Origin: a virus
Taxonomy: Duplodnaviria > Caudoviricetes
IMG/VR virus record: IMGVR_UViG_3300026546_000011
Span: 1-35,577 of that record
DNA: 35,577 bases
Strand: one strand, 5' to 3'
The notes under the pieces were generated by a model. That model was not told where the DNA came from, did not search any database, and worked only from the letters and a program-made list of their open reading frames with translations. This document shows, piece after piece, positions 13,983 through 26,127 of the stretch. The translations under genes were made by a program, and so were the position numbers. Numbering within the stretch: position 1 is the stretch's first letter; each line of letters begins with the position of its first letter.

Positions 13983-14570
13983 TTATAAATACTCATTTAA
14001 AAATTTTATAATCACCTCACTAATTAATTGATTTATTTTATTATGACCAAACTCATCTACCAAAAAAAATTCACCATTTTTTACATAATATATTTTATAA
14101 TCTATATTATCTGGTAATTCATTACGTATTGATGTATATTCCTCTAATTTATCTAATTTATCTTGCATATCATCATATACATCAATTTCTTCAATATCTG
14201 GAAATTTTTCCATATAATGCATAATAACATCACCTTTATTTAAATCACCAGTATAATTCATAATTAGTTTATTATAAGGGATATTTTTTGATTTAAGAAT
14301 AGATTCTACTTGTGGTCGTAATTGTTCTAATCGTGCTGTTAATATTAAAACATATGTATCTTTATCAACATAATCATCTCTAATTTTTGCAACCACAATA
14401 GGGAATGGATCAAAATTAAATACATTTAAATCTAAACTTTCTGGTTTACTCCACCAACCTTTTGTGGGATATTGTTTATTATAATATTTTACCCATTCTG
14501 ATTTACCAGGATTAGGTGTAGGACTTTTCACTAAAGTACCGTCAAAATCATATACCGCTAATTTTTTCAT
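13983..14570 (-). CDS. HAD-family phosphatase (Swiss-army-knife RNA-repair type)
   Basis: Motif I YDFDGTL, GWWSKPESL, motif II LTAR, motif III Lys (NKG), motif IV YDD. Confidence 0.85.
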   Translation of the reverse strand: MKKLAVYDFDGTLVKSPTPNPGKSEWVKYYNKQYPTKGWWSKPESLDLNVFNFDPFPIVVAKIRDDYVDKDTYVLILTARLEQLRPQVESILKSKNIPYNKLIMNYTGDLNKGDVIMHYMEKFPDIEEIDVYDDMQDKLDKLEEYTSIRNELPDNIDYKIYYVKNGEFFLVDEFGHNKINQLISEVIIKFLNEYL

Positions 14571-14608: not shown

Positions 14609-15058
14609 TTATATATCAAGAATTTTTATATTTTCATTTATATTAAAAGGTACTTCTTCTATTTTACCAGAAAAATATACTCGTGTTTCTATAGGATACC
14701 ATTTTTCAATATCATTTGACATTCGAGGTTTACCACCATTTGGGTTTACCGCTAAAGTAATGTGTGGTATATTATTACTAGTTTCTATATTAGGATATAT
14801 AATTTCCACACCAGCAGCAATAGCCATATCACTTTTACCCAAACTTATAATTCTAAATCGTGCAGTTGTATTTAAATATGGCTCTATTTCAGGTTTTGCA
14901 GCACCCAAATTTAAAGTTATGTGATGTGTATAAATTTTCCAATTATCTGGTATAAAATCACCTAGAAAATTTAATAATTTCCTTTTACTTCTTTCATCTA
15001 AAATTATAGCTGTATATGATATAGTTACCTTTTTTCCTTTATCAACTATTCCATTCAT
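14609..15058 (-). CDS. 2H phosphoesterase / 2',3'-cyclic phosphodiesterase (tRNA-ligase CPD-like)
   Basis: Two HxT motifs (HHITL and PHITLAV), followed by KPRMSNDIEKW. Confidence 0.85.
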   Translation of the reverse strand: MNGIVDKGKKVTISYTAIILDERSKRKLLNFLGDFIPDNWKIYTHHITLNLGAAKPEIEPYLNTTARFRIISLGKSDMAIAAGVEIIYPNIETSNNIPHITLAVNPNGGKPRMSNDIEKWYPIETRVYFSGKIEEVPFNINENIKILDI

Positions 15059-15063
15059 TTTTT

Positions 15064-16587
15064 TTATAATATTTTTTTACTATTATTTAATATTTTATAG
15101 AAATTTTCAACTAATTTAGTTTGTTGTTCACTATCTTTTTTTGCTTGCTGATATTGATTTTCAACCCCTAAAAATTTAGCCATTTCATCGGGGGTTATAT
15201 ATTTTGCAGGATGTATATTTACATTTTCTTCTTCACTTAAAGGTGTGTTATTATCATTATTTTGTTTTTTTAAATAATCATTAATATGTTTAATCATCAA
15301 ATTAACCACATTAGTTACTGTATCAAATACTTTTAACATAGATTCTTTATCACCACCCCATAATAAAGCATAATTTATTGATGTTGTTTTTAAATCGAAA
15401 CCATATGAAGCCATTACCATCCAAGCGGCAATTTCTGCTTGTTGTTCAACAACACCTCTACTATCTTTACCAATAAAAAATTGCTCAAAATCAGGATCTT
15501 TACTTTTTACGTATGTTTGGTGTAACAATTCATGTGCAATTTCGTGTGCTAAGGTTTTTGTTAAACCCACATCATTACCCTCATTTTTTAAAACTTCAAT
15601 ACTACCGCTTTTACTAACACCCTTAGCACCCCCTAAATCATCACTCATATCAATTTTTATATCTTTTGAATGTGCAAAATCAATTAAAGCATTATAAATA
15701 GGTCTTACTTTTTCATCAATTAAATCATCTTCAGCCCATTTCACATCTTCTTTCTTTTTAAATTCCTCATAATAATCCTTTTTACCTTCTATTTGAGTTG
15801 TAAATCTAACATCATATGTGGGATACCATTCAAAAGAATTTTTAAATATAAGACCTAATTCAATATTTAATTTATGTTTTAAACCAGGCTTATCTTTTAA
15901 AGTATCTTGAGGATTTAAATTATGTTTTTTATAAAAATCTTTTTTTATTTTCTCACGTTCTGTTTTAGATAATTTACTTCTCATATGCTTTGGTTTTACC
16001 AACCATATTATAGGGGCTTCTTTATTAACAACCCTATTAAACATTTTCCATACTGAACGTGATTTAACCCAAGTGGCTTTTCTATCTTGTAATAAGATAA
16101 GCATTGAATTATACAAACTATAACCATGATCTTTAATACTTCTAAAACTTTGAACTATTTTCATAGTTTTTTTAAATTCCTCATCATTATCTATATTAAC
16201 AATTTCGTTTCTTAAATCTTCTAAACTTTTTCTAATTTTAATTTCATCTTCTTTAGGTAAAACATTACTTTGAATATTTTCTAAACTATTTATTAATTCT
16301 TCAGCAGCATCTAAGTATTCATCCACTTCATCAGTTGGTTTTTTTTCTATTTTTAAAATTTCTCGTAAAGCAGGTTTTATATTATTTTCTTTAATATCTT
16401 CATAATTTTCATCATTATAAAACCAAAACCACACTTTTTTTAAATTATTCCATTTAGCACCATATTTTTTTAAAATACTAGTATGTGGATATATTTTTAT
16501 TTCACTTTCATTGGGATCAATATAAACTATTTTATATTTTTTACCTTGTTTACTTGTTTCAACAGATCTTTTTAATTTAAATTCCAT
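15064..16587 (-). CDS. ArdC-like ssDNA-binding domain fused to a zincin-like metallopeptidase (polyvalent-protein type)
   Basis: YSLYNSMLILLQ-x-x-x-ATWVKS-x-x-x-WKMFNRVVNK (ArdC-N), YDVRFT, LAHEIAHELLH (HExxH) and EQQAE. The N-terminus also carries LKKYGAKWN-x-x-x-K-x-W. Confidence 0.85.
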   Translation of the reverse strand: MEFKLKRSVETSKQGKKYKIVYIDPNESEIKIYPHTSILKKYGAKWNNLKKVWFWFYNDENYEDIKENNIKPALREILKIEKKPTDEVDEYLDAAEELINSLENIQSNVLPKEDEIKIRKSLEDLRNEIVNIDNDEEFKKTMKIVQSFRSIKDHGYSLYNSMLILLQDRKATWVKSRSVWKMFNRVVNKEAPIIWLVKPKHMRSKLSKTEREKIKKDFYKKHNLNPQDTLKDKPGLKHKLNIELGLIFKNSFEWYPTYDVRFTTQIEGKKDYYEEFKKKEDVKWAEDDLIDEKVRPIYNALIDFAHSKDIKIDMSDDLGGAKGVSKSGSIEVLKNEGNDVGLTKTLAHEIAHELLHQTYVKSKDPDFEQFFIGKDSRGVVEQQAEIAAWMVMASYGFDLKTTSINYALLWGGDKESMLKVFDTVTNVVNLMIKHINDYLKKQNNDNNTPLSEEENVNIHPAKYITPDEMAKFLGVENQYQQAKKDSEQQTKLVENFYKILNNSKKIL

Positions 16588-16599
16588 TTTTTTATAATA

Positions 16600-16749
16600 T
16601 TAATCAATAACATTATTTTTCTCATCTTCAATTGACAGTAAACTATTATTAATAATTTCCTCAATTAAAGCATCATTATATTCTTTTTCAACACCTAAAA
16701 AAATTGCTAAATCTTTTGGCGTTATTTCTTTTGTTTCTTTTATTTCCAT
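16600..16749 (-). CDS. Unannotated 49-aa ORF similar to the C-terminal motif of the ArdC protein
   Basis: Translated by hand: MEIKETKEITPKDLAIFLGVEKEYNDALIEEIINNSLLSIEDEKNNVID*. It fills the gap between two genes. ITPKDLAIFLGVEKEY resembles ITPDEMAKFLGVENQY. Confidence 0.75.
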   Translation of the reverse strand: MEIKETKEITPKDLAIFLGVEKEYNDALIEEIINNSLLSIEDEKNNVID

Positions 16750-16766
16750 TTTTTTATTTTAGATTA

Positions 16767-19700
16767 TTAACCTGTACTTGCTATAAAATCAATACTTTTT
16801 TGTGGTATTTTTTCAGGACTATCATATCTTTTACTTGCTGCTCTATGAGTATAAACATAAAACCCATTTTTATCAGCACCTAATGAAACACCATGAAATC
16901 TTTTACCTTTTACTTTAGGTATTTTTAAACCATGAACTCTACCACCTTCAATATATTTTGAACCACCCCCTAAATATTTAAATATATTTTCTTTCATCTC
17001 TTTAGATATATTTTTTGATTTTAAAAGAGATTCTTTTGTTTTTATATATTTAGTTTTTTTTCTTTTTTTAGTTTCATTTAAATTAAGTGGTATTATTTTT
17101 TTTATAAATACTAAAATATCATCATAATTATTATTTATTTTATCATAATATATATTTATTAATATTTTTTTCAAAATATTGCCAGTTTCTCGTTTATTTG
17201 GTAATAATTTGCTAACTTCACCACCATTTATATTTAATTCTCTCACCGTTTTAGGATATTTACCCGATAATAAATCAATTGATGATTTTTCTAATTCCTC
17301 TGGTAATATTTTACTTTCTAATGTTCGGGGCGATTTTAAATACATATTATGAGATAATACTCTATAATAACCAGGATTTTCATTTTTTTTGTAATTATCA
17401 AACCCTAATATGAAGGCTTCAATATCAGCAACTGATTTATTATCTAATCTTAAATTTTTTTTATAAAAATCTAAAGGTTTGTGATTATGTTTTGTTAATA
17501 AAAATACAAATTCAGATATTGTATTTACATTATTAAATTCACCAGGATTTAATTGATCTATATATAAATCACTATCAAAAATTTCTTTATATAAATTAGT
17601 TTCAATTAATATTTTAGCACCTAAATAGGGATTACCCTTTTTTACTATTTTTTCAAATTCAGTAATTATTCTATCACCAGGTATTTCTTTAATTTTATAA
17701 GCATTTTTCTGTATTAATCTCATTGTTTTTGGTTCAATGATAAAACCAAATCTAGATGCAAATTGAACTGCTCTTAACATCCGTAAAGGATCATCTGCAA
17801 ATGCTTTAGGATCAACAACTCTAATAATTTTATTTTTTAAATCTTCAATACCATTAAAAGGATCAATATATTTACCATTAATATCTTTAGCAATAGCATT
17901 AATAGTAAAATCACGTCTTTTTAAATCATCTTCAATAGGTAATGTATGGTCACTCGTAATTTCAAAACCCTTATGACCACCTTCACCCGTAGGTTTTTCA
18001 GTTCTAGGTATTGCTATATCAATATCTTCAGTAGCTCCTTTAGGTATAAATTTAATAATACCAAATTGTTTACCAACATTATTTACTTTACCGTATTTAC
18101 TTAAAATTTTACTTAATTCTTCTAAAGGTATACCAGTTATTAAAATATCTAAATCTTTAGATTCTTTACCTAAAAATTCATCTCTAACTATACCACCTAC
18201 TGAATATATTTTACCACCATTTTTCTCAATATCATCTTTAAAAGGTAAATCTTCTAATTTATATTCAACACTTTCATCTATAATATTATTTTCATTATAA
18301 ATAACTTTACCAAAATTATCAACATCATGATAACTATAAATATTTTTTGTCGAAAATTTAATTTTGGGATTTTTAATTTGTGCTTTAGCAAAAATTACTT
18401 TTATTTCATTTAAAAAGTTTTTAAAATAAATCACCAAATCATCAATATTTTTAAAATTTTTTTGAATTTTCAGTTTTTTAAAAATATGATTCATCATCTC
18501 AATATACGGATAATCTAAATCCTTTCTTATATTATTATAATCAATATTAGAAGCACCCAAAACAAACTCATTACTATCTTTTAATCTAATAACGCTAATA
18601 CCACCAATTATTGTTGGTATTATCCATTCAAAATTATAATAAATATCATCATTCAGTGTCGGTATAATATGTTTATCCTTTAAAAAATTATATAAGTCAA
18701 AATGAGTTAATTTAGCCTCACTTTCCACATATAAATCACCATTTAATGTTACAATACCACGTATAAAAGAATCTAAATCTTTTAAATTTTTCGGGTTTTT
18801 TATTATCTTAACACCATTACTTTCACCAACTATTTCATTATTTTGAATAGCCAATTCTTTATTTAAATCAGCATCTGGATCTGTAAATTGATGAGGATAT
18901 TTATTTACTAAATATTTATCACCAACCCCTTCTGCTGTATAATTTCTTTTTTTCAAATCAATAACATCATATTTAAAAACACCACGATATTTACTATAAT
19001 CAATTATATTTTCAGATGAAAATTTTAATTGCGGATTTTTATTTCGTGCTTTATTAATAAAACTATCAATCTGTTTTTCACATATTTTTTTAAATTCTTT
19101 TATTTCAGTATCATTTGGAATATCATTTTTATTGAAAATACTAATTTTATTATCAGGGTTTTTTTCCATTTTTAGAAAACTATATGTTGAACATACCATA
19201 CCCTCACCAGTCATAAATATATTTAAATTACCTGGTCTTTGAATTGTTAAATATCCGATTTTTTCAGGTAGATATATAATATATCCTAAATATAATGATG
19301 ATTTATTTGTTATAATATTATTATCATATAAAAAACTAATAATATCTGCGTGTATAACATTATAACTATAATTCTTCAAAACATATACATCACCATTATC
19401 AAGTATAACACCCCTAACATCACGATCTAACATTGAAAAAGATGTTGGGTTTTTTATTAATTCATCACCATTTTCCATTTTAAAAATTTCAACATCGCCC
19501 CTTTCCACAGCCTTTGTTAATTGAAAATCACGTTCAAATTCATCATCAGGATCTGTGAATTGATAAGGGTGTTTTTTTGCTAAAAATTTATCAGCAACCC
19601 CTTCTTCAATATCGTCAATTTTATCTAAAATACTATCCTCACTATAAACCTTAACACATTCTAATTTAAAATCAATATTAGAATTTTTAGTTTTACTTAA

Positions 19701-22178
19701 TTTTATAAAATTATTAGCACTTAATCTATAAGTTCTTAAATACTCACCCTTTGTAGTATCTTCTGGTAAATTATTATTTTTTAATATTTTCCCTCTCCAT
19801 TTTGGACTATCAAAATCTATTGATATCCATTTACTACAAATTGAAATTGATTCACCTAAATAAATAGCATTTAAATTATCTTTTCGTTGAACTGTTAAAA
19901 ACCCAAGTTTCTCTGGTATCATAATATGATAATAATTGTTTAACTTATTTTTGTTTAAAACACCAATATCTTCTAAAATTTCAATAAGAGCACTATGTAT
20001 AATTTTATTATTTGATACTATATATAAATCACCATTATTAGTTATAACACCTCTAACACTATCAGGAAAATTATACAAATTATCGGGATTTTTTACTATT
20101 ATAAGATTATTATATTTACCATATTCACCATTAAACACAATCTTATTTTTATCAGATTGATTAATTAAATTGTTTTTATATTTTTGTTCAAAATCATCAT
20201 CATCTTTAGATAAAGATTGTAATTTAGGGTTGTTTTTATAATATTTTTCCCAAGTACCCTCATTAAGATTAAATTGGTATGTATCAACAACCCTTTTTAA
20301 ACTAATTTTTATATTAGGGTGTTTTCTCTCAAAAATCGTTATAAATTCTTTATATAGTGGTATAACTTCTTGTTTAAAATGCATTAATGTTTTTACATCA
20401 GCATCCCCAACTTCTAAAACGTTTTCTTTATATGCTTTTATAACACTTATATAATCAGTAGGTTTCACATCCCATCTATTCCTATATTCAATATTCTTAA
20501 ATTCGGGAATATTTTCCTTTAAAATTTTAAATATTTCGATATGAATTAAATCAGGGGTTGAACAGATATATAAATCACCATTTTTTAATATAAAACCTCT
20601 TGTACCCCCCTCTAAATTATTAAAATTTTTAGGGTTTTTATAAATATAAAACGCTTCATGTTTAGGATCGAAATAAAACTCTCTAAAATCATTAATATCA
20701 CCCTTATAAACCACATCTGAAGATTCTTCATTTTTATTTATATTATAATATTTATTGGGATCTTGAGGTATTATCCCCTTCTTAGCATATATTTTATCAG
20801 CAATACCATACCCCCTATTATCTTCAACAACACTCCCAAATTCTAAATTATTAATATCACCTTGATTACAGGCATCCGAAGTATTACCTTTTCCCGCCAA
20901 TCTACATCTTTTTTTTACTGTAACAGTAGACGACCCTGGCATATATGATTTTTTTCTATCTTCATCAATATTTTTTAAAGATTTTAGATATTTAAAGAAT
21001 ATTTTTTTATCTATTGGGTTTTTTTCAAAATATTTGTAAAGATTGTTTTTTATTTTTTTAAAATCTGATAAATCACCATTAGATATTTTATTAAAAAAAT
21101 CACTAAAATCTTGTTTAAATATAACTTCTATAATAAATTTAAGACGATCAGAATCATCAATTTCATTATTTTCTTTAATTTTTATTGTATTTTTTTTATC
21201 TAAATTCGGTATTTCTGTTGAATATCCCATTGGTTTAGCAATATCAAATAATTTTAAAATATTATTTTTATAACCCAAATTATCCACATTTGCATAATCA
21301 TTATATCTACGTAAACCATAACCATCTAATTCAGTGTGAATATTCACCATACCAATCATAAAATTATATATATCTAATATTGGTATAGTATTATTAATTT
21401 GTTTTAATTTATTTAAATTATCATCAGATAAATTTAAATTATATTTTTTTAAATTTTCTTTAGAAATATCACCGTTTAAATACAAACTAATTATCTTTAA
21501 AAAATTTAAATAATTAAAAGCATTGGTTCTTAAAAAATTTCTATTAAAAAATTTTTTAATATATTTTATAAAATCAAATTTTTCGGTTAAATTTGATATA
21601 TTATTATACCCATCAATATATTTAATAAATAAATTTTTGGGTTTGTCTGGTATAAATTCTTCTAAAATAGCAAAAATAATTTCACCCTCATCTTCATTTA
21701 TTATTTTATAAACATCATAAATCCACGCTAAATAATATGGTTTTTCACCCTTTAATTTAATGGCTGCTTCAACCTCTGTTGGATCTGTTGTTATTTTTAA
21801 TATTTTATTATCATTAGTTTTATAAGCATAACCATTAGCACCACTGCCAATATAAACATTATCTGAAACTAAACTATATTTTTTTGGTAAAATTTCTGCA
21901 ATATTATCGGCATTTTCGCGATCTAAATGATATCTATCTAAAAAATATTTTTGATCATCTTCCATTAAAATTTGATGTTTAACAAAAAAATTTTTTATTT
22001 TATTATTAATTTTTTTATTTTTTTTAATTCTTTCAAATAAAATATATTCATCAGTTATATCATCTGGAACAGATAAAGGCGTTAAAGCCCAAAAAGAATG
22101 ACGTATTTCATTTCCATCATAAAAATCTTCAAAATTATCTGGTATATTTAAATCTAATAATTCATAAATTTTATACAT
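16767..22178 (-). CDS. 1803-aa multidomain polyprotein: protein-kinase-like domain, four repeats of an unknown domain, class II CCA-adding enzyme, C-terminal domain
   Basis: Kinase: IGSGANGYAY, ILKIT, DYANVDNLG, LKLFDI. Repeats: KNP...RG...NGD(L/V)Y...H, four copies. CCA: VGGIVRD...DLDI, RTE, DLKRRDFTINA, DPFNG, DDPLRMLRA. Confidence 0.85.
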   Translation of the reverse strand: MYKIYELLDLNIPDNFEDFYDGNEIRHSFWALTPLSVPDDITDEYILFERIKKNKKINNKIKNFFVKHQILMEDDQKYFLDRYHLDRENADNIAEILPKKYSLVSDNVYIGSGANGYAYKTNDNKILKITTDPTEVEAAIKLKGEKPYYLAWIYDVYKIINEDEGEIIFAILEEFIPDKPKNLFIKYIDGYNNISNLTEKFDFIKYIKKFFNRNFLRTNAFNYLNFLKIISLYLNGDISKENLKKYNLNLSDDNLNKLKQINNTIPILDIYNFMIGMVNIHTELDGYGLRRYNDYANVDNLGYKNNILKLFDIAKPMGYSTEIPNLDKKNTIKIKENNEIDDSDRLKFIIEVIFKQDFSDFFNKISNGDLSDFKKIKNNLYKYFEKNPIDKKIFFKYLKSLKNIDEDRKKSYMPGSSTVTVKKRCRLAGKGNTSDACNQGDINNLEFGSVVEDNRGYGIADKIYAKKGIIPQDPNKYYNINKNEESSDVVYKGDINDFREFYFDPKHEAFYIYKNPKNFNNLEGGTRGFILKNGDLYICSTPDLIHIEIFKILKENIPEFKNIEYRNRWDVKPTDYISVIKAYKENVLEVGDADVKTLMHFKQEVIPLYKEFITIFERKHPNIKISLKRVVDTYQFNLNEGTWEKYYKNNPKLQSLSKDDDDFEQKYKNNLINQSDKNKIVFNGEYGKYNNLIIVKNPDNLYNFPDSVRGVITNNGDLYIVSNNKIIHSALIEILEDIGVLNKNKLNNYYHIMIPEKLGFLTVQRKDNLNAIYLGESISICSKWISIDFDSPKWRGKILKNNNLPEDTTKGEYLRTYRLSANNFIKLSKTKNSNIDFKLECVKVYSEDSILDKIDDIEEGVADKFLAKKHPYQFTDPDDEFERDFQLTKAVERGDVEIFKMENGDELIKNPTSFSMLDRDVRGVILDNGDVYVLKNYSYNVIHADIISFLYDNNIITNKSSLYLGYIIYLPEKIGYLTIQRPGNLNIFMTGEGMVCSTYSFLKMEKNPDNKISIFNKNDIPNDTEIKEFKKICEKQIDSFINKARNKNPQLKFSSENIIDYSKYRGVFKYDVIDLKKRNYTAEGVGDKYLVNKYPHQFTDPDADLNKELAIQNNEIVGESNGVKIIKNPKNLKDLDSFIRGIVTLNGDLYVESEAKLTHFDLYNFLKDKHIIPTLNDDIYYNFEWIIPTIIGGISVIRLKDSNEFVLGASNIDYNNIRKDLDYPYIEMMNHIFKKLKIQKNFKNIDDLVIYFKNFLNEIKVIFAKAQIKNPKIKFSTKNIYSYHDVDNFGKVIYNENNIIDESVEYKLEDLPFKDDIEKNGGKIYSVGGIVRDEFLGKESKDLDILITGIPLEELSKILSKYGKVNNVGKQFGIIKFIPKGATEDIDIAIPRTEKPTGEGGHKGFEITSDHTLPIEDDLKRRDFTINAIAKDINGKYIDPFNGIEDLKNKIIRVVDPKAFADDPLRMLRAVQFASRFGFIIEPKTMRLIQKNAYKIKEIPGDRIITEFEKIVKKGNPYLGAKILIETNLYKEIFDSDLYIDQLNPGEFNNVNTISEFVFLLTKHNHKPLDFYKKNLRLDNKSVADIEAFILGFDNYKKNENPGYYRVLSHNMYLKSPRTLESKILPEELEKSSIDLLSGKYPKTVRELNINGGEVSKLLPNKRETGNILKKILINIYYDKINNNYDDILVFIKKIIPLNLNETKKRKKTKYIKTKESLLKSKNISKEMKENIFKYLGGGSKYIEGGRVHGLKIPKVKGKRFHGVSLGADKNGFYVYTHRAASKRYDSPEKIPQKSIDFIASTG
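18877..19604. repeat. 56-nt imperfect direct repeat (18877-18932 and 19549-19604) at the start of polyprotein repeats 4 and 3
   Basis: 48/56 nt identical by manual alignment; encodes EGVGDKYLVNKYPHQFTDP and EGVADKFLAKKHPYQFTDP. Confidence 0.85.
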
Positions 22179-22205: not shown

Positions 22206-22799
22206 TTATGTTTTCTTCTTTTTATATAGTTCTTTTAATGTTTTTAAAACAACATTTTTTACTATATCCTCATTTTCATTAATCACTTCCTTAATACGTT
22301 CACTCATAAAAATATTTACTATTGAATTTTTTAAAGCATTTTCAATTAAATGTTCAAAATTATCAGTTATAATTTTCTTAATTATTTCTTCATTAATCAT
22401 ACCTGATTGTTGAGGTAATGATGTTAATAATTCATTTTCATTTACAGATCCATATCTTTTTTTATTTAATAAATTATTACTTCTTTTTTCTATTTCCTCA
22501 TATAATAAACCATCTCTATCAACACTATTTTGTGTTTTTGTATTTTGAGGTATTTCAGTATTGTTAATAGTATGTCTAATATTCTCACCCTTTTTTTCAG
22601 CAACCTTATTATCAACCATTTTTACTAATTTAGATGCATGTGTTTCACGTCCTGAATTTAAAGATTCTAATAAACCATTTAAAAACTGATCTTTTGGTTG
22701 TAAATTTGTGTTATTTGCATCAATACCAATATTTGATTTAGTTTCTTTTCTTCTTTTTATCTCGTCTTTTAATTTATTTAAATTAATATTATCACTCAT
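22206..22799 (-). CDS. Hypothetical helical protein
   Basis: 197 aa, N/K/E-rich, within the late operon. Confidence 0.65.
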   Translation of the reverse strand: MSDNINLNKLKDEIKRRKETKSNIGIDANNTNLQPKDQFLNGLLESLNSGRETHASKLVKMVDNKVAEKKGENIRHTINNTEIPQNTKTQNSVDRDGLLYEEIEKRSNNLLNKKRYGSVNENELLTSLPQQSGMINEEIIKKIITDNFEHLIENALKNSIVNIFMSERIKEVINENEDIVKNVVLKTLKELYKKKKT

Positions 22800-22810
22800 A
22801 ATTATAAAAT

Positions 22811-23629
22811 TTATTTATTTATTTTATCATTTAAATCTTTTTCAATATTATTGAAAAAATCCGTTGGTATTGGTTTATTTTCAAGCACATATCTATTATA
22901 TAATTCTTGTAAATTACCGATAACAACATCTTCAGGTACATTATTAATTTCTAATCCACGTTTAGTCATTAAAACCATATCACCTTTATCATTTTGTACA
23001 ACCCAATAATTTCTTTTCGCTTTTTTTCTATATTTGGTAACTACATCTGATAAATATTCAATCTCATCTTTTGTTATAGATCTATTAATTTTTTCAGCAT
23101 GTTTAAAAAAATCGTCATATCTGCTAATTTTTTTATCATAATCTGTCTTATCTGGTGTTTCTTTACTAATTGACAATTCCACTTCAATATCCTTATCATT
23201 AGGGTTATATTTAACCCCATCATTAGTAATAAAAAATTCTTTAGGTTTAAACTCGTAACCAGTAGGATATATTGATTTAATTCCATCAATTCTAAATAAA
23301 CGCCATCCTGGTTGTATACCCCCTTTAGGACTTGATTGTTTTTCATGTCCTTGTCTTGGTATTCTATTTAACCCTTTATAACTATCAGAACTTCCAGCAT
23401 CCTGCCATGCTCTAACAACATAATTGCCCGTAGTTTTATGTTTACCATAAACAAATGGTCTGATAGTTCTATACCCCTTTAATATGGTATCATCCCCATC
23501 ATAATAAATAAATAATATTTTATGTTGTTTTATAGCCGTTTTTATATCATTTGGATTTACATTCTCAAATAATAAACGTTTCTTAAAACTTAAAATATTT
23601 TCAAATATTTTTTTTAATTCATTAACCAT
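22811..23629 (-). CDS. WYL-domain protein without an HTH
   Basis: IYYDG...GYRTIRPFVYG...VVRAWQ...GWRLFRIDGI matches the WYL SH3-like fold pattern. Confidence 0.75.
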   Translation of the reverse strand: MVNELKKIFENILSFKKRLLFENVNPNDIKTAIKQHKILFIYYDGDDTILKGYRTIRPFVYGKHKTTGNYVVRAWQDAGSSDSYKGLNRIPRQGHEKQSSPKGGIQPGWRLFRIDGIKSIYPTGYEFKPKEFFITNDGVKYNPNDKDIEVELSISKETPDKTDYDKKISRYDDFFKHAEKINRSITKDEIEYLSDVVTKYRKKAKRNYWVVQNDKGDMVLMTKRGLEINNVPEDVVIGNLQELYNRYVLENKPIPTDFFNNIEKDLNDKINK

Positions 23630-23868
23630 TATGCTTTACTACTATCATATTGATCGTTGGCATTATATTTATTTTTTACCATTGATTTTTGTCGTGTTTT
23701 TATATCAGTAAGACCACCAACAGAATCGTTTAATTCACCCTTCCCTTTTTCATCACCATCAGATAAAGCATTGGGATTTGAAATATTATATTCGTCATTA
23801 CTATTATAAGAATTACGTGTCATTTCACGCTTTCTAAATGCTACACTCATATCTTCTAATCTGCTCAT
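23629..23868 (-). CDS. Small hydrophilic protein with an internal repeat
   Basis: 79 aa; RNSYNSNDEY and KNKYNANDQY flank NALSDGDEKGKG; first gene after a late-type promoter. Confidence 0.7.
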   Translation of the reverse strand: MSRLEDMSVAFRKREMTRNSYNSNDEYNISNPNALSDGDEKGKGELNDSVGGLTDIKTRQKSMVKNKYNANDQYDSSKA

Positions 23869-23897
23869 TTTTTTTATATTAAAATATTGTTATTTTA

Positions 23898-23906
23898 TAT
23901 AAATAC
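23898..23906 (-). promoter_or_regulatory. Putative phage late promoter GTATTTATA
   Basis: + strand TATAAATAC, about 30 nt upstream of the ATG at 23868. Confidence 0.6.
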
Positions 23907-23910
23907 TACA

Positions 23911-24675
23911 TTAATCATAATTTTTAAATGCTAGATTAATATAATCTAATAAATTAGGAACGTGATCTAAAAATTTAATTTCTTGAGGTAAATACCAACC
24001 ATATGCAACATTTTCAATCATATCAAGTTTAACATTATCAATATCACTATCATATTTACAAACATATATATATTCAATATTATCTGCTGTACGTTGAATT
24101 ATATATCTATGTGAATATTTTGTTATCACTAAACCAGTTTCCTCTTTTATTTCACGATAACAAGCATCTATAGGTTCTTCACCTTTTTCAACACCACCAC
24201 CTACTAAAGACCATTTACTTGGTTGCCAATCGGCTTTATCACTTCTTTTAACTAATAAAATTTGACTATCTGGATTAACTATAATAGCGATTACATTTTT
24301 TTTAGCATCATTATCATCAAAAACAACATTTTCATTTAATTGTATTTCTTGATTTAAATCTTGTTTACCATCACCTTTAATTTTTCGTGAAATTTCAGTT
24401 CCCTTTCTATCCTGTGATAATTTTTGCTCTATAAACCCTCTCATTAAATTACCACCAGCTAATTCATATTCTTGTTTTTCATTTGAATTAATATTAAAAC
24501 TATCAAACATATTTTTTATACGTTTCATATCTTGGTAAGTAATTCTACCATTTTTTAAAATAAATTTTGCTCTTTTCACACCCTTACCTTGAGGATATAT
24601 TGTTAATTGCTTACTTATATATTCTAAAATTTCTTTGGGTATTATATATTCTTTATCATATAATTCACTATTCAT
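23911..24675 (-). CDS. Nudix hydrolase with an extra N-terminal domain
   Basis: Nudix box GGVEKGEEPIDACYREIKEETGL, preceded by ILLVKRS...WSLV. Confidence 0.9.
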   Translation of the reverse strand: MNSELYDKEYIIPKEILEYISKQLTIYPQGKGVKRAKFILKNGRITYQDMKRIKNMFDSFNINSNEKQEYELAGGNLMRGFIEQKLSQDRKGTEISRKIKGDGKQDLNQEIQLNENVVFDDNDAKKNVIAIIVNPDSQILLVKRSDKADWQPSKWSLVGGGVEKGEEPIDACYREIKEETGLVITKYSHRYIIQRTADNIEYIYVCKYDSDIDNVKLDMIENVAYGWYLPQEIKFLDHVPNLLDYINLAFKNYD

Positions 24676-24681
24676 AATTAA

Positions 24682-24742
24682 TTTATATTCTTTTACATAT
24701 AATTTTTATTATATATTATATTTTATATTCCATTACATATAA
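24682..24742. repeat. Intergenic 21-nt direct repeat with a 40-nt period
   Basis: TTTATATTCTTTTACATATAA (24682-24702) and TTTATATTCCATTACATATAA (24722-24742); 19/21 identical. Confidence 0.6.
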
Positions 24743-24746
24743 AATA

Positions 24747-25511
24747 TTACCACTGATATATGTTATATTGTAAACCTAAACCAATAACAAAAGATGGTTG
24801 ATTATTCATAAAATCATAACCTATTACTGCTGCAGGACCTATTCCAAAACCTGTAAACCAATGTTTCTTTTTAGGATATTTAACAAAAACACCACTCATA
24901 TTATTTATTTTTAAAGCGGGATGTTTTGTTAACACATAAACTTCAACACCATCTTTAGTATATCGTTGACCCCATATTAAATTAACAACACTTGACCTTT
25001 CCAACATTTCAGTTTTTTCATGTGTTATTGTTATTATATCATCATCACAATATGTTTTTATTGTAGTACTACCAATATAATGATCGAAATTATTATCGCC
25101 ATAATCATAAAATAATTTCCAGGGTATTTCCCATGTATTAGTGTCCTTTTTTACAGGCTCATACATTTGTGATTCTAAAGCATTTAAATATTGTCTTAAT
25201 TCAGTAGTATCTTGTTTTAAATTAAAAATAATATGATTTAACGTTATCACATCACCCTTAATTTTTTTCACTTCATTATATAATGAATCGTTACATTTTT
25301 TTAATTCCTTTTTATCTGCTTTATATGCTTTTGTTGTATATAATAATTCATTATTTTTTCGATGTAATAATATTGTTTTATCATCACTTATTTTCAAATT
25401 ATACTCACTAATTTTCAATTCTTTATGTAATTTGTTAATAACCCCTAATAAAGAAATTATTAATGCTACGATAAAAACAACACCCCATTTTATTTTTTTT
25501 AAATTATTCAT
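24747..25511 (-). CDS. Membrane-anchored coiled-coil protein with C-terminal amphipathic beta-strands (candidate single-chain spanin)
   Basis: N-terminal TM WGVVFIVALIISLLGVI, a coiled coil, and a C-terminus GFGIGPAAVIGYD...VIGLGLQYNIYQW ending in an aromatic residue. Confidence 0.6.
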   Translation of the reverse strand: MNNLKKIKWGVVFIVALIISLLGVINKLHKELKISEYNLKISDDKTILLHRKNNELLYTTKAYKADKKELKKCNDSLYNEVKKIKGDVITLNHIIFNLKQDTTELRQYLNALESQMYEPVKKDTNTWEIPWKLFYDYGDNNFDHYIGSTTIKTYCDDDIITITHEKTEMLERSSVVNLIWGQRYTKDGVEVYVLTKHPALKINNMSGVFVKYPKKKHWFTGFGIGPAAVIGYDFMNNQPSFVIGLGLQYNIYQW

Positions 25512-26127
25512 CTTCTAATAAATTTTTTAATTTAGAAACATTTTTTTTATCCATTTTATTAATTAAATCAGCAAGATGTTTTATTTTTTTATCTAAAACA
25601 TCCCTATCTTTAGATTTTTCTTTTGAAATATCTTTAGGATCGTCTTTTTTTTCTAATACTTTACCCTCAATAAAAGTATTTTCATCAATATTTTCTTTTA
25701 AAGTATTATTTAATTCATTTAAAGAATTTTCAATATACGGTTTTAAAAAATCTATAATCTCTTTAGCAGTATCGTTACAAAAATCTTTATTATCCTTTAA
25801 ATTGTTAAAGTCATTTTTTACTTTATTGGGTTTTTTTAAATAAGAAATTAAAACACTTTTTCTTTTATCATATAAAAATTTAGACAAATCATCAATTAAA
25901 TTATTATTACCCTTTTCCTCACTTTCAAAAAAAGGTAATAAACTAAAACCAAATCTTGCTAACATATCATATTTAAATGGTTGATGCCCCTTACCAGCAT
26001 TAAAATCAGTAGTATTTAATGCTTTACTATCTAAATTAGATCCGTTTGTTGGGTATTTATCATAACCTATTAATTCATCATTTGAATCTATTATTTCATC
26101 TAACATTTTTTTTGTTAATTTCGCCAT
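25504..26127 (-). CDS. Hypothetical late protein
   Basis: 207 aa; directly behind a late-type motif. Confidence 0.65.
   Translation of the reverse strand: MAKLTKKMLDEIIDSNDELIGYDKYPTNGSNLDSKALNTTDFNAGKGHQPFKYDMLARFGFSLLPFFESEEKGNNNLIDDLSKFLYDKRKSVLISYLKKPNKVKNDFNNLKDNKDFCNDTAKEIIDFLKPYIENSLNELNNTLKENIDENTFIEGKVLEKKDDPKDISKEKSKDRDVLDKKIKHLADLINKMDKKNVSKLKNLLEDE

Follow-up and report, generated by a model that had tools for sequence, protein, structure and literature searches.

The 35,577-nucleotide window analysed here is a whole virus contig (Duplodnaviria, Caudoviricetes; IMG/VR record IMGVR_UViG_3300026546_000011), and it encodes on the minus strand, at 16767..22178, a single 1803-aa protein whose open reading frame (ORF) has no internal stop, as a first-pass annotation made from the sequence alone had described. 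A kinase-like domain, a Cys-pair mini-module, four related repeats, a CCA-type tRNA nucleotidyltransferase and a basic C-terminal domain follow one another in this chain. The best explanation, to which we give a probability of about 0.6, is that a T4-like jumbo phage likely packs one chain of roughly ten modules into its prohead, where an S77 (gp21-type) prohead protease likely cuts it after hydrophobic-x-Glu junctions; four predicted PHPT1-like phosphatases, the kinase-like protein and the CCA-adding enzyme would then be injected with the DNA, each as a protein of its own. Cleavage of a viral polyprotein into separate effectors had been proposed in the first pass, which named neither the protease nor the fold of the repeats. 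The proposal has partial support, in that it agrees with the statistics of the junctions, with the leaders seen on stand-alone genes and with the presence of S77 in complete relatives.

The first-pass annotation had several modules start right after a Glu motif, and all five motifs it named (LNE-GTWEK, IEE-GVADK, TAE-GVGDK, IDE-SVE and LNE-TKK) are in place, with the Glu at aa 640, 859, 1083, 1302 and 1702. The T-A-E at aa 1083 falls outside hydrophobic-x-Glu and, with a V-V-E, is an exception to L/I-X-E in this protein. Across related proteins, [ILVM]-polar-Glu occurs at the start of the Cys module in 38/56 cases and at its end in 49/60 (null maxima 9 and 13 in 2000 draws), and at the CCA start in 33 of 45, the C-terminal domain in 5 of 8 and the kinase in 53 of 60 (null maxima 10, 4 and 32, likewise from 2000 draws); because the junction windows were chosen after seeing the data and the sequences are related by descent, the null comparisons should not be read as probabilities. 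Of 195 repeat domains, 189 are preceded by a Glu, and stand-alone repeat genes carry a leader of 7-60 residues ending in Glu in 49 of the 51 where a start motif was found. In the complete 327-kb phage G001, to whose syntenic locus the CCA module led us, recurrent leaders are common to 7 of 335 ORFs (random mean 0.4, maximum 3, with patterns defined post hoc).

Two observations weigh against taking the motif as a cutting site: it is found inside domains as well, and it is no denser in the locus than in replication proteins, where its density is equal, so that density does not set the locus apart. The chain might also stay whole, or be a cytoplasmic multidomain protein, its Glu motifs being leader relics of gene fusion. 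Because stand-alone genes have such leaders, fusion by itself would leave Glu motifs behind, and N4 virion RNA polymerase and ArdC are polyvalent proteins that move unprocessed, according to section 8 of PMC5512222. We consider this unlikely, since the motifs persist on either side of the Cys module and in front of the CCA module in lineages whose upstream neighbours differ, whereas relics should decay.

A precedent for processing by a head protease is T4 gp21, which cleaves behind L/I-X-E, and T4 injects its internal proteins (PMC9026906, PMC9958956). G001 encodes both an S77 protease and a gp23-like capsid protein, and S77 is present in four of five further relatives; the one that lacks it is 61% complete, so that all five complete relatives, G001 included, have the protease. 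Head genes, including an S77 gene of its own, are absent from the window contig. In G002 and G003 (L086-L089) the S77 matches are split within open frames of 615-651 aa, which suggests an intein-like insertion. Another candidate for the cutting enzyme is the product of the gene immediately downstream (15064..16587, minus strand), with an HEIAH zincin motif and a weak match to MPTase-PolyVal (Pfam E 0.036, below cut-off); MPTase processing is the model published for polyvalent proteins (PMC5512222). We regard cutting by this zincin as improbable, for it occurs in just 8 of 46 related loci (here and below, these counts are bounded by the length of the locus flanks) against S77 in 5/5 complete relatives, and the Glu specificity fits gp21. 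Should S77 be the cutter, T4-type head maturation would extend from leader trimming to freeing many enzymes from one precursor, and a sequence rule would predict injected cargo in uncultured jumbo phages.

The ORF is known from a single contig, and run X1, possibly the source sample, contains it in short pieces only, which would be in keeping with a chimeric assembly; no RNA data set was among those listed as containing the sequence. These pieces nevertheless span five module junctions (C-terminal domain/CCA, CCA/R4, R4/R3, R3/R2 and R2/R1), which argues against misassembly. The comparison covered 15500-21950, outside which the first ~75 codons of the ORF fall, and the R1/Cys and kinase junctions were not spanned among the pieces listed; we put one short joint (side 20) down to chance. 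GC content is even (0.20-0.26), and in P0067, a protein from a related locus, the five module types all appear in the order seen here, so that we find a chimera extremely unlikely.

Relatives combine the same modules in different ways. We compared the 1803-aa protein with 126 others, left from a set of 134 after removal of seven near-duplicates: Cys and CCA modules are joined in 39 of these, repeat and CCA in 27, and kinase, Cys, repeat and CCA in 7, and P0067 has all five. The architecture, which the first-pass annotation did not recognise, is less singular than it seemed there, and the polyvalent-protein concept is published; four tandem repeats ahead of a CCA module were found in none of the proteins listed. 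At the G001 locus, kinase, Cys, GNAT and ART domains form one ORF and CCA with two 2H domains another, and an endonuclease-like gene (L001:9076-9933) lies between the two halves. A 362-kb contig in a Paceibacterota metagenome-assembled genome (L090) has a CCA module 71% identical to ours, and is probably a jumbo phage of the same clade binned with that genome. Neither the repeat nor the Cys module matched cultured phage records.

The chain begins (aa 1-73, 21960..22178; all modules are on the minus strand) with a short Lys/Tyr start ending in Glu at aa 6 and a small module recognised by sequence and homology; the latter is internal in relatives, placed after a first kinase, and 27 high-scoring segment pairs begin there. 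The kinase-like domain follows at aa 74-336 (21171..21959), and its core, at aa ~108-314 (nt ~21237-21857), has a Gly loop, a Lys, an Asp-x5-Asn and an F-D motif, the DFG equivalent, a pattern matched 55 times among related proteins. The domain ends ~20 aa past the F-D motif and is thus a kinase core without C-lobe, as Kinase-PolyVal requires. Kinase-fold families are among its language-model neighbours, at 0.94, whereas a Pfam search at E 0.1 was blank, leaving the Kinase-PolyVal profile unmatched, and a search of PDB sequences gave chance ribosomal matches only; the kinase-like call of the first pass thus stands on motifs and language-model neighbours and not on a Pfam or PDB sequence match. 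After a 70-aa helical spacer with no family match (aa 337-406, 20961..21170) comes the Cys-pair mini-module (aa 407-452, 20823..20960), a hallmark of the polyprotein family with a Glu motif on each side. It recurs in 55 IMG/VR loci, 10 of which hold a weaker, different family. A shorter cousin (C-T-K-F-P-Y-C-N-Q-G-D) sits towards the C-terminal end of a different conserved phage protein (L074-L083, near 10001), as a possible core-assembly tag.

The four repeats, R1 (aa 453-640, 20259..20822), R2 (aa 641-859, 19602..20258), R3 (aa 860-1083, 18930..19601) and R4 (aa 1084-1302, 18273..18929), are mutually homologous, as had been noted: all six pairs give BLAST E values of 1e-8 to 1e-24 and local scores with z of 10-30 above 100 shuffles each. 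A repeat profile finds 830 clusters at E 0.001. We predict that the repeats are distantly related to PHPT1, a phosphohistidine phosphatase of animals. Secondary-structure order appears to agree along the whole PHPT1 chain at ~12% identity, and there is a profile match to one Pfam Ocnus member in which the His and the G-x-S columns line up. Among the equivalents of PHPT1 Lys21, His53, Arg78 and Ser94, His and Ser are aligned and the two basic residues are matched by order only. All four candidate active-site residues are present in R2 and R4, while the Ser is replaced by Asp in R1, itself predicted PHPT1/Janus-like, and by Gly in R3. For R3 a folded model reached a predicted local distance difference test score (pLDDT) of 94, and a single-sequence fold only 44.

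Other searches were negative. PF05005 was not among the matches listed in repeat-related family searches (one showing the best 25 of 62 families), nor was it found in five phage genomes or 251 Muribaculaceae-family genomes. In BFVD nothing matched at E 0.001, repeat profiles against PDB sequences gave nothing or chance rows, an Atlas search with a solo repeat scored 0.80 or less, and viral scans with A1 and with A7 gave no match. There is a real, if minority, chance that processing is right and the repeat is no phosphatase, being instead an RNA-binding NFACT-R-like domain, a new fold, or a phosphate- or nucleotide-binding decoy. Speaking for a phosphatase are the invariant His with two basic residues and Ser, and the Ocnus alignment of the His and G-x-S columns, a sequence test made for the PHPT1 side only.

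As PHPT1-like phosphatases, the repeats would hydrolyse a phosphate with the His as general base and two Arg and the Ser holding the phosphate; R2 and R4 would be active and R1 and R3 possibly weakened. The target might be phosphohistidine on host signalling proteins or, as a second guess, RNA-end or nucleotide phosphates. If right, this would give a testable chemistry to a family that spans at least 830 clusters and has no annotation. Rather doubtful is the fullest version, in which a jumbo-phage clade uses its prohead protease to process a polyprotein into an injected toolkit with cargo swapped at Glu junctions, including a large undescribed PHPT1-like phosphohistidine phosphatase family that silences host two-component or phosphotransferase-system signalling in the first minutes, plus kinase and tRNA-end repair enzymes.

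Repeats and Janus-like proteins also turned up elsewhere. Janus-like proteins of 120-175 aa occur in five more archaeal loci (L144-L148, two of them in L147). P0028 has repeat modules in a protein starting with a Glu/Gln-tRNA synthetase fragment, which may be an assembly join. A run of small genes (L027:4866-11386), each with an I-K-I-R-K/N-F-x-E leader, includes several repeat-like ones, one fused to InPase. In another phage lineage (L028:8165-10384), five tandem short repeat-like modules each follow K-L/V-x-x-S/A-E, and solo genes share the leader; it seems that different lineages use different junction motifs.

At aa 1303-1702 (17073..18272) the chain contains a class II CCA-type tRNA nucleotidyltransferase. 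Its core matches Pfam PolyA_pol (aa 1324-1453, E 9e-25), aa 1315-1694 match NCBIfam PRK13299 at E 1.4e-48, below that family's cut-off, and solved CCA enzymes also match, 6ibp with E 1.4e-29. Class II motifs A-E, a basic/acidic loop and an R-T-E loop are present, and a search of aa 1301-1702 for a His-Asp dipeptide found none, in agreement with the complete core, R-x-E loop and lack of an obvious HD domain noted in the first pass. CCA specificity, as opposed to CC, A or poly(A) addition, is predicted from the best NCBIfam match, which is of CCA type and below cut-off. Cellular matches are spread over many phyla at 26-49% identity. Its role would be to complete or mend the 3' ends of tRNAs together with two neighbours on the minus strand, a 2H cyclic phosphodiesterase (14609..15058; in 41/46 related loci, and in relatives part of one protein with the CCA enzyme) and a HAD phosphatase of RNA-repair type (13983..14570; 39/46). 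No tRNA genes were found in the window. G001 has 55 tRNA genes (2 undetermined), 4 of them ending in CCA, plus a tmRNA, so its CCA enzyme could mature phage tRNAs besides repairing host tRNAs; most of these genes (L008-L010) encode the first C of CCA only, and a CUA-anticodon tRNA is present. The basic C-terminal domain (aa 1703-1803, 16770..17072, net +18), also seen in the first pass, matches phrog_3666 (E 1.3e-10), and a small gene of the same kind occurs in two Bacillus phages.

The contig (GC 21-29%, all genes on one strand) also encodes baseplate, DNA polymerase B and SNF2 genes. Related loci further share Nudix (43/46) and a gene that we take to be ParB-like (41/46), and the neighbour labels WYL-like and ArdC-like are likewise our assumption. 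Upstream, at 22206-26127, lie genes for 197-aa, 272-aa, Nudix and 207-aa proteins; the three tested recur in 42-43 of the 46 loci, with Glu motifs near domain ends, and these genes may be further head cargo.

We searched mostly open literature for a comparable system and found neither a prohead-protease polyprotein of this kind nor a phage PHPT1-like family; the sole phage mention of a phosphohistidine phosphatase was SixA, which is unrelated, and the supplementary architecture files of the two Iyer papers could list such proteins. The repeats appear to share with PHPT1/Janus-Ocnus (PF05005; PDB 2hw4, 2nmm, 2ai6) the order of secondary-structure elements, a His at a helix start, a G-x-S loop and basic residues in matching order, and differ in their ~12% identity, extra N-terminal helices and insertions, and lack of a Pfam match seen. 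Jumbo-phage CCA enzymes are already known (PMC7824862). Like these and the Bacillus-type PRK13299 enzymes, the module here has head/neck motifs, an R-x-E loop, a D-D-P-L-R nucleotide-binding motif and no HD domain; it differs in being embedded in a polyprotein, under NCBIfam cut-offs, with neighbours that supply 2H and HAD enzymes.

The nearest published concept is that of polyvalent proteins (Iyer et al. 2017, PMC5512222), large phage chains of 2-15 disparate domains. The 1803-aa protein is such a chain, mosaic among relatives that carry ART-PolyVal, GNAT, 2H/Acb1-like, InPase-adjacent and SAM-lyase domains, with a kinase lacking the C-lobe. The MPTase/ArdC-N/MuF hub, common and not obligatory in polyvalent proteins, is missing from the chain, a weak MPTase lying only next door. 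The chain also differs in its full CCA enzyme, against the minimal Pol-beta type of section 12 of that paper, whose main text has 'CCA' 0 times, and in the predicted processing at every junction by a separate prohead protease. In T4 internal head proteins (IPI-III, Alt; gp21) and phiKZ and SPN3US ejection proteins, PMC9026906, PMC9958956 and PMC5694885 describe cutting after Glu in L/I-X-E, short leaders and injection with DNA, and the relatives studied here have S77 and gp23 homologues. In those phages the protease removes propeptides or degrades scaffolds, whereas here it is predicted to free as many as ten folded modules from a single precursor; the 1803-aa protein is a real polyvalent-protein variant with a likely T4-type processing route.
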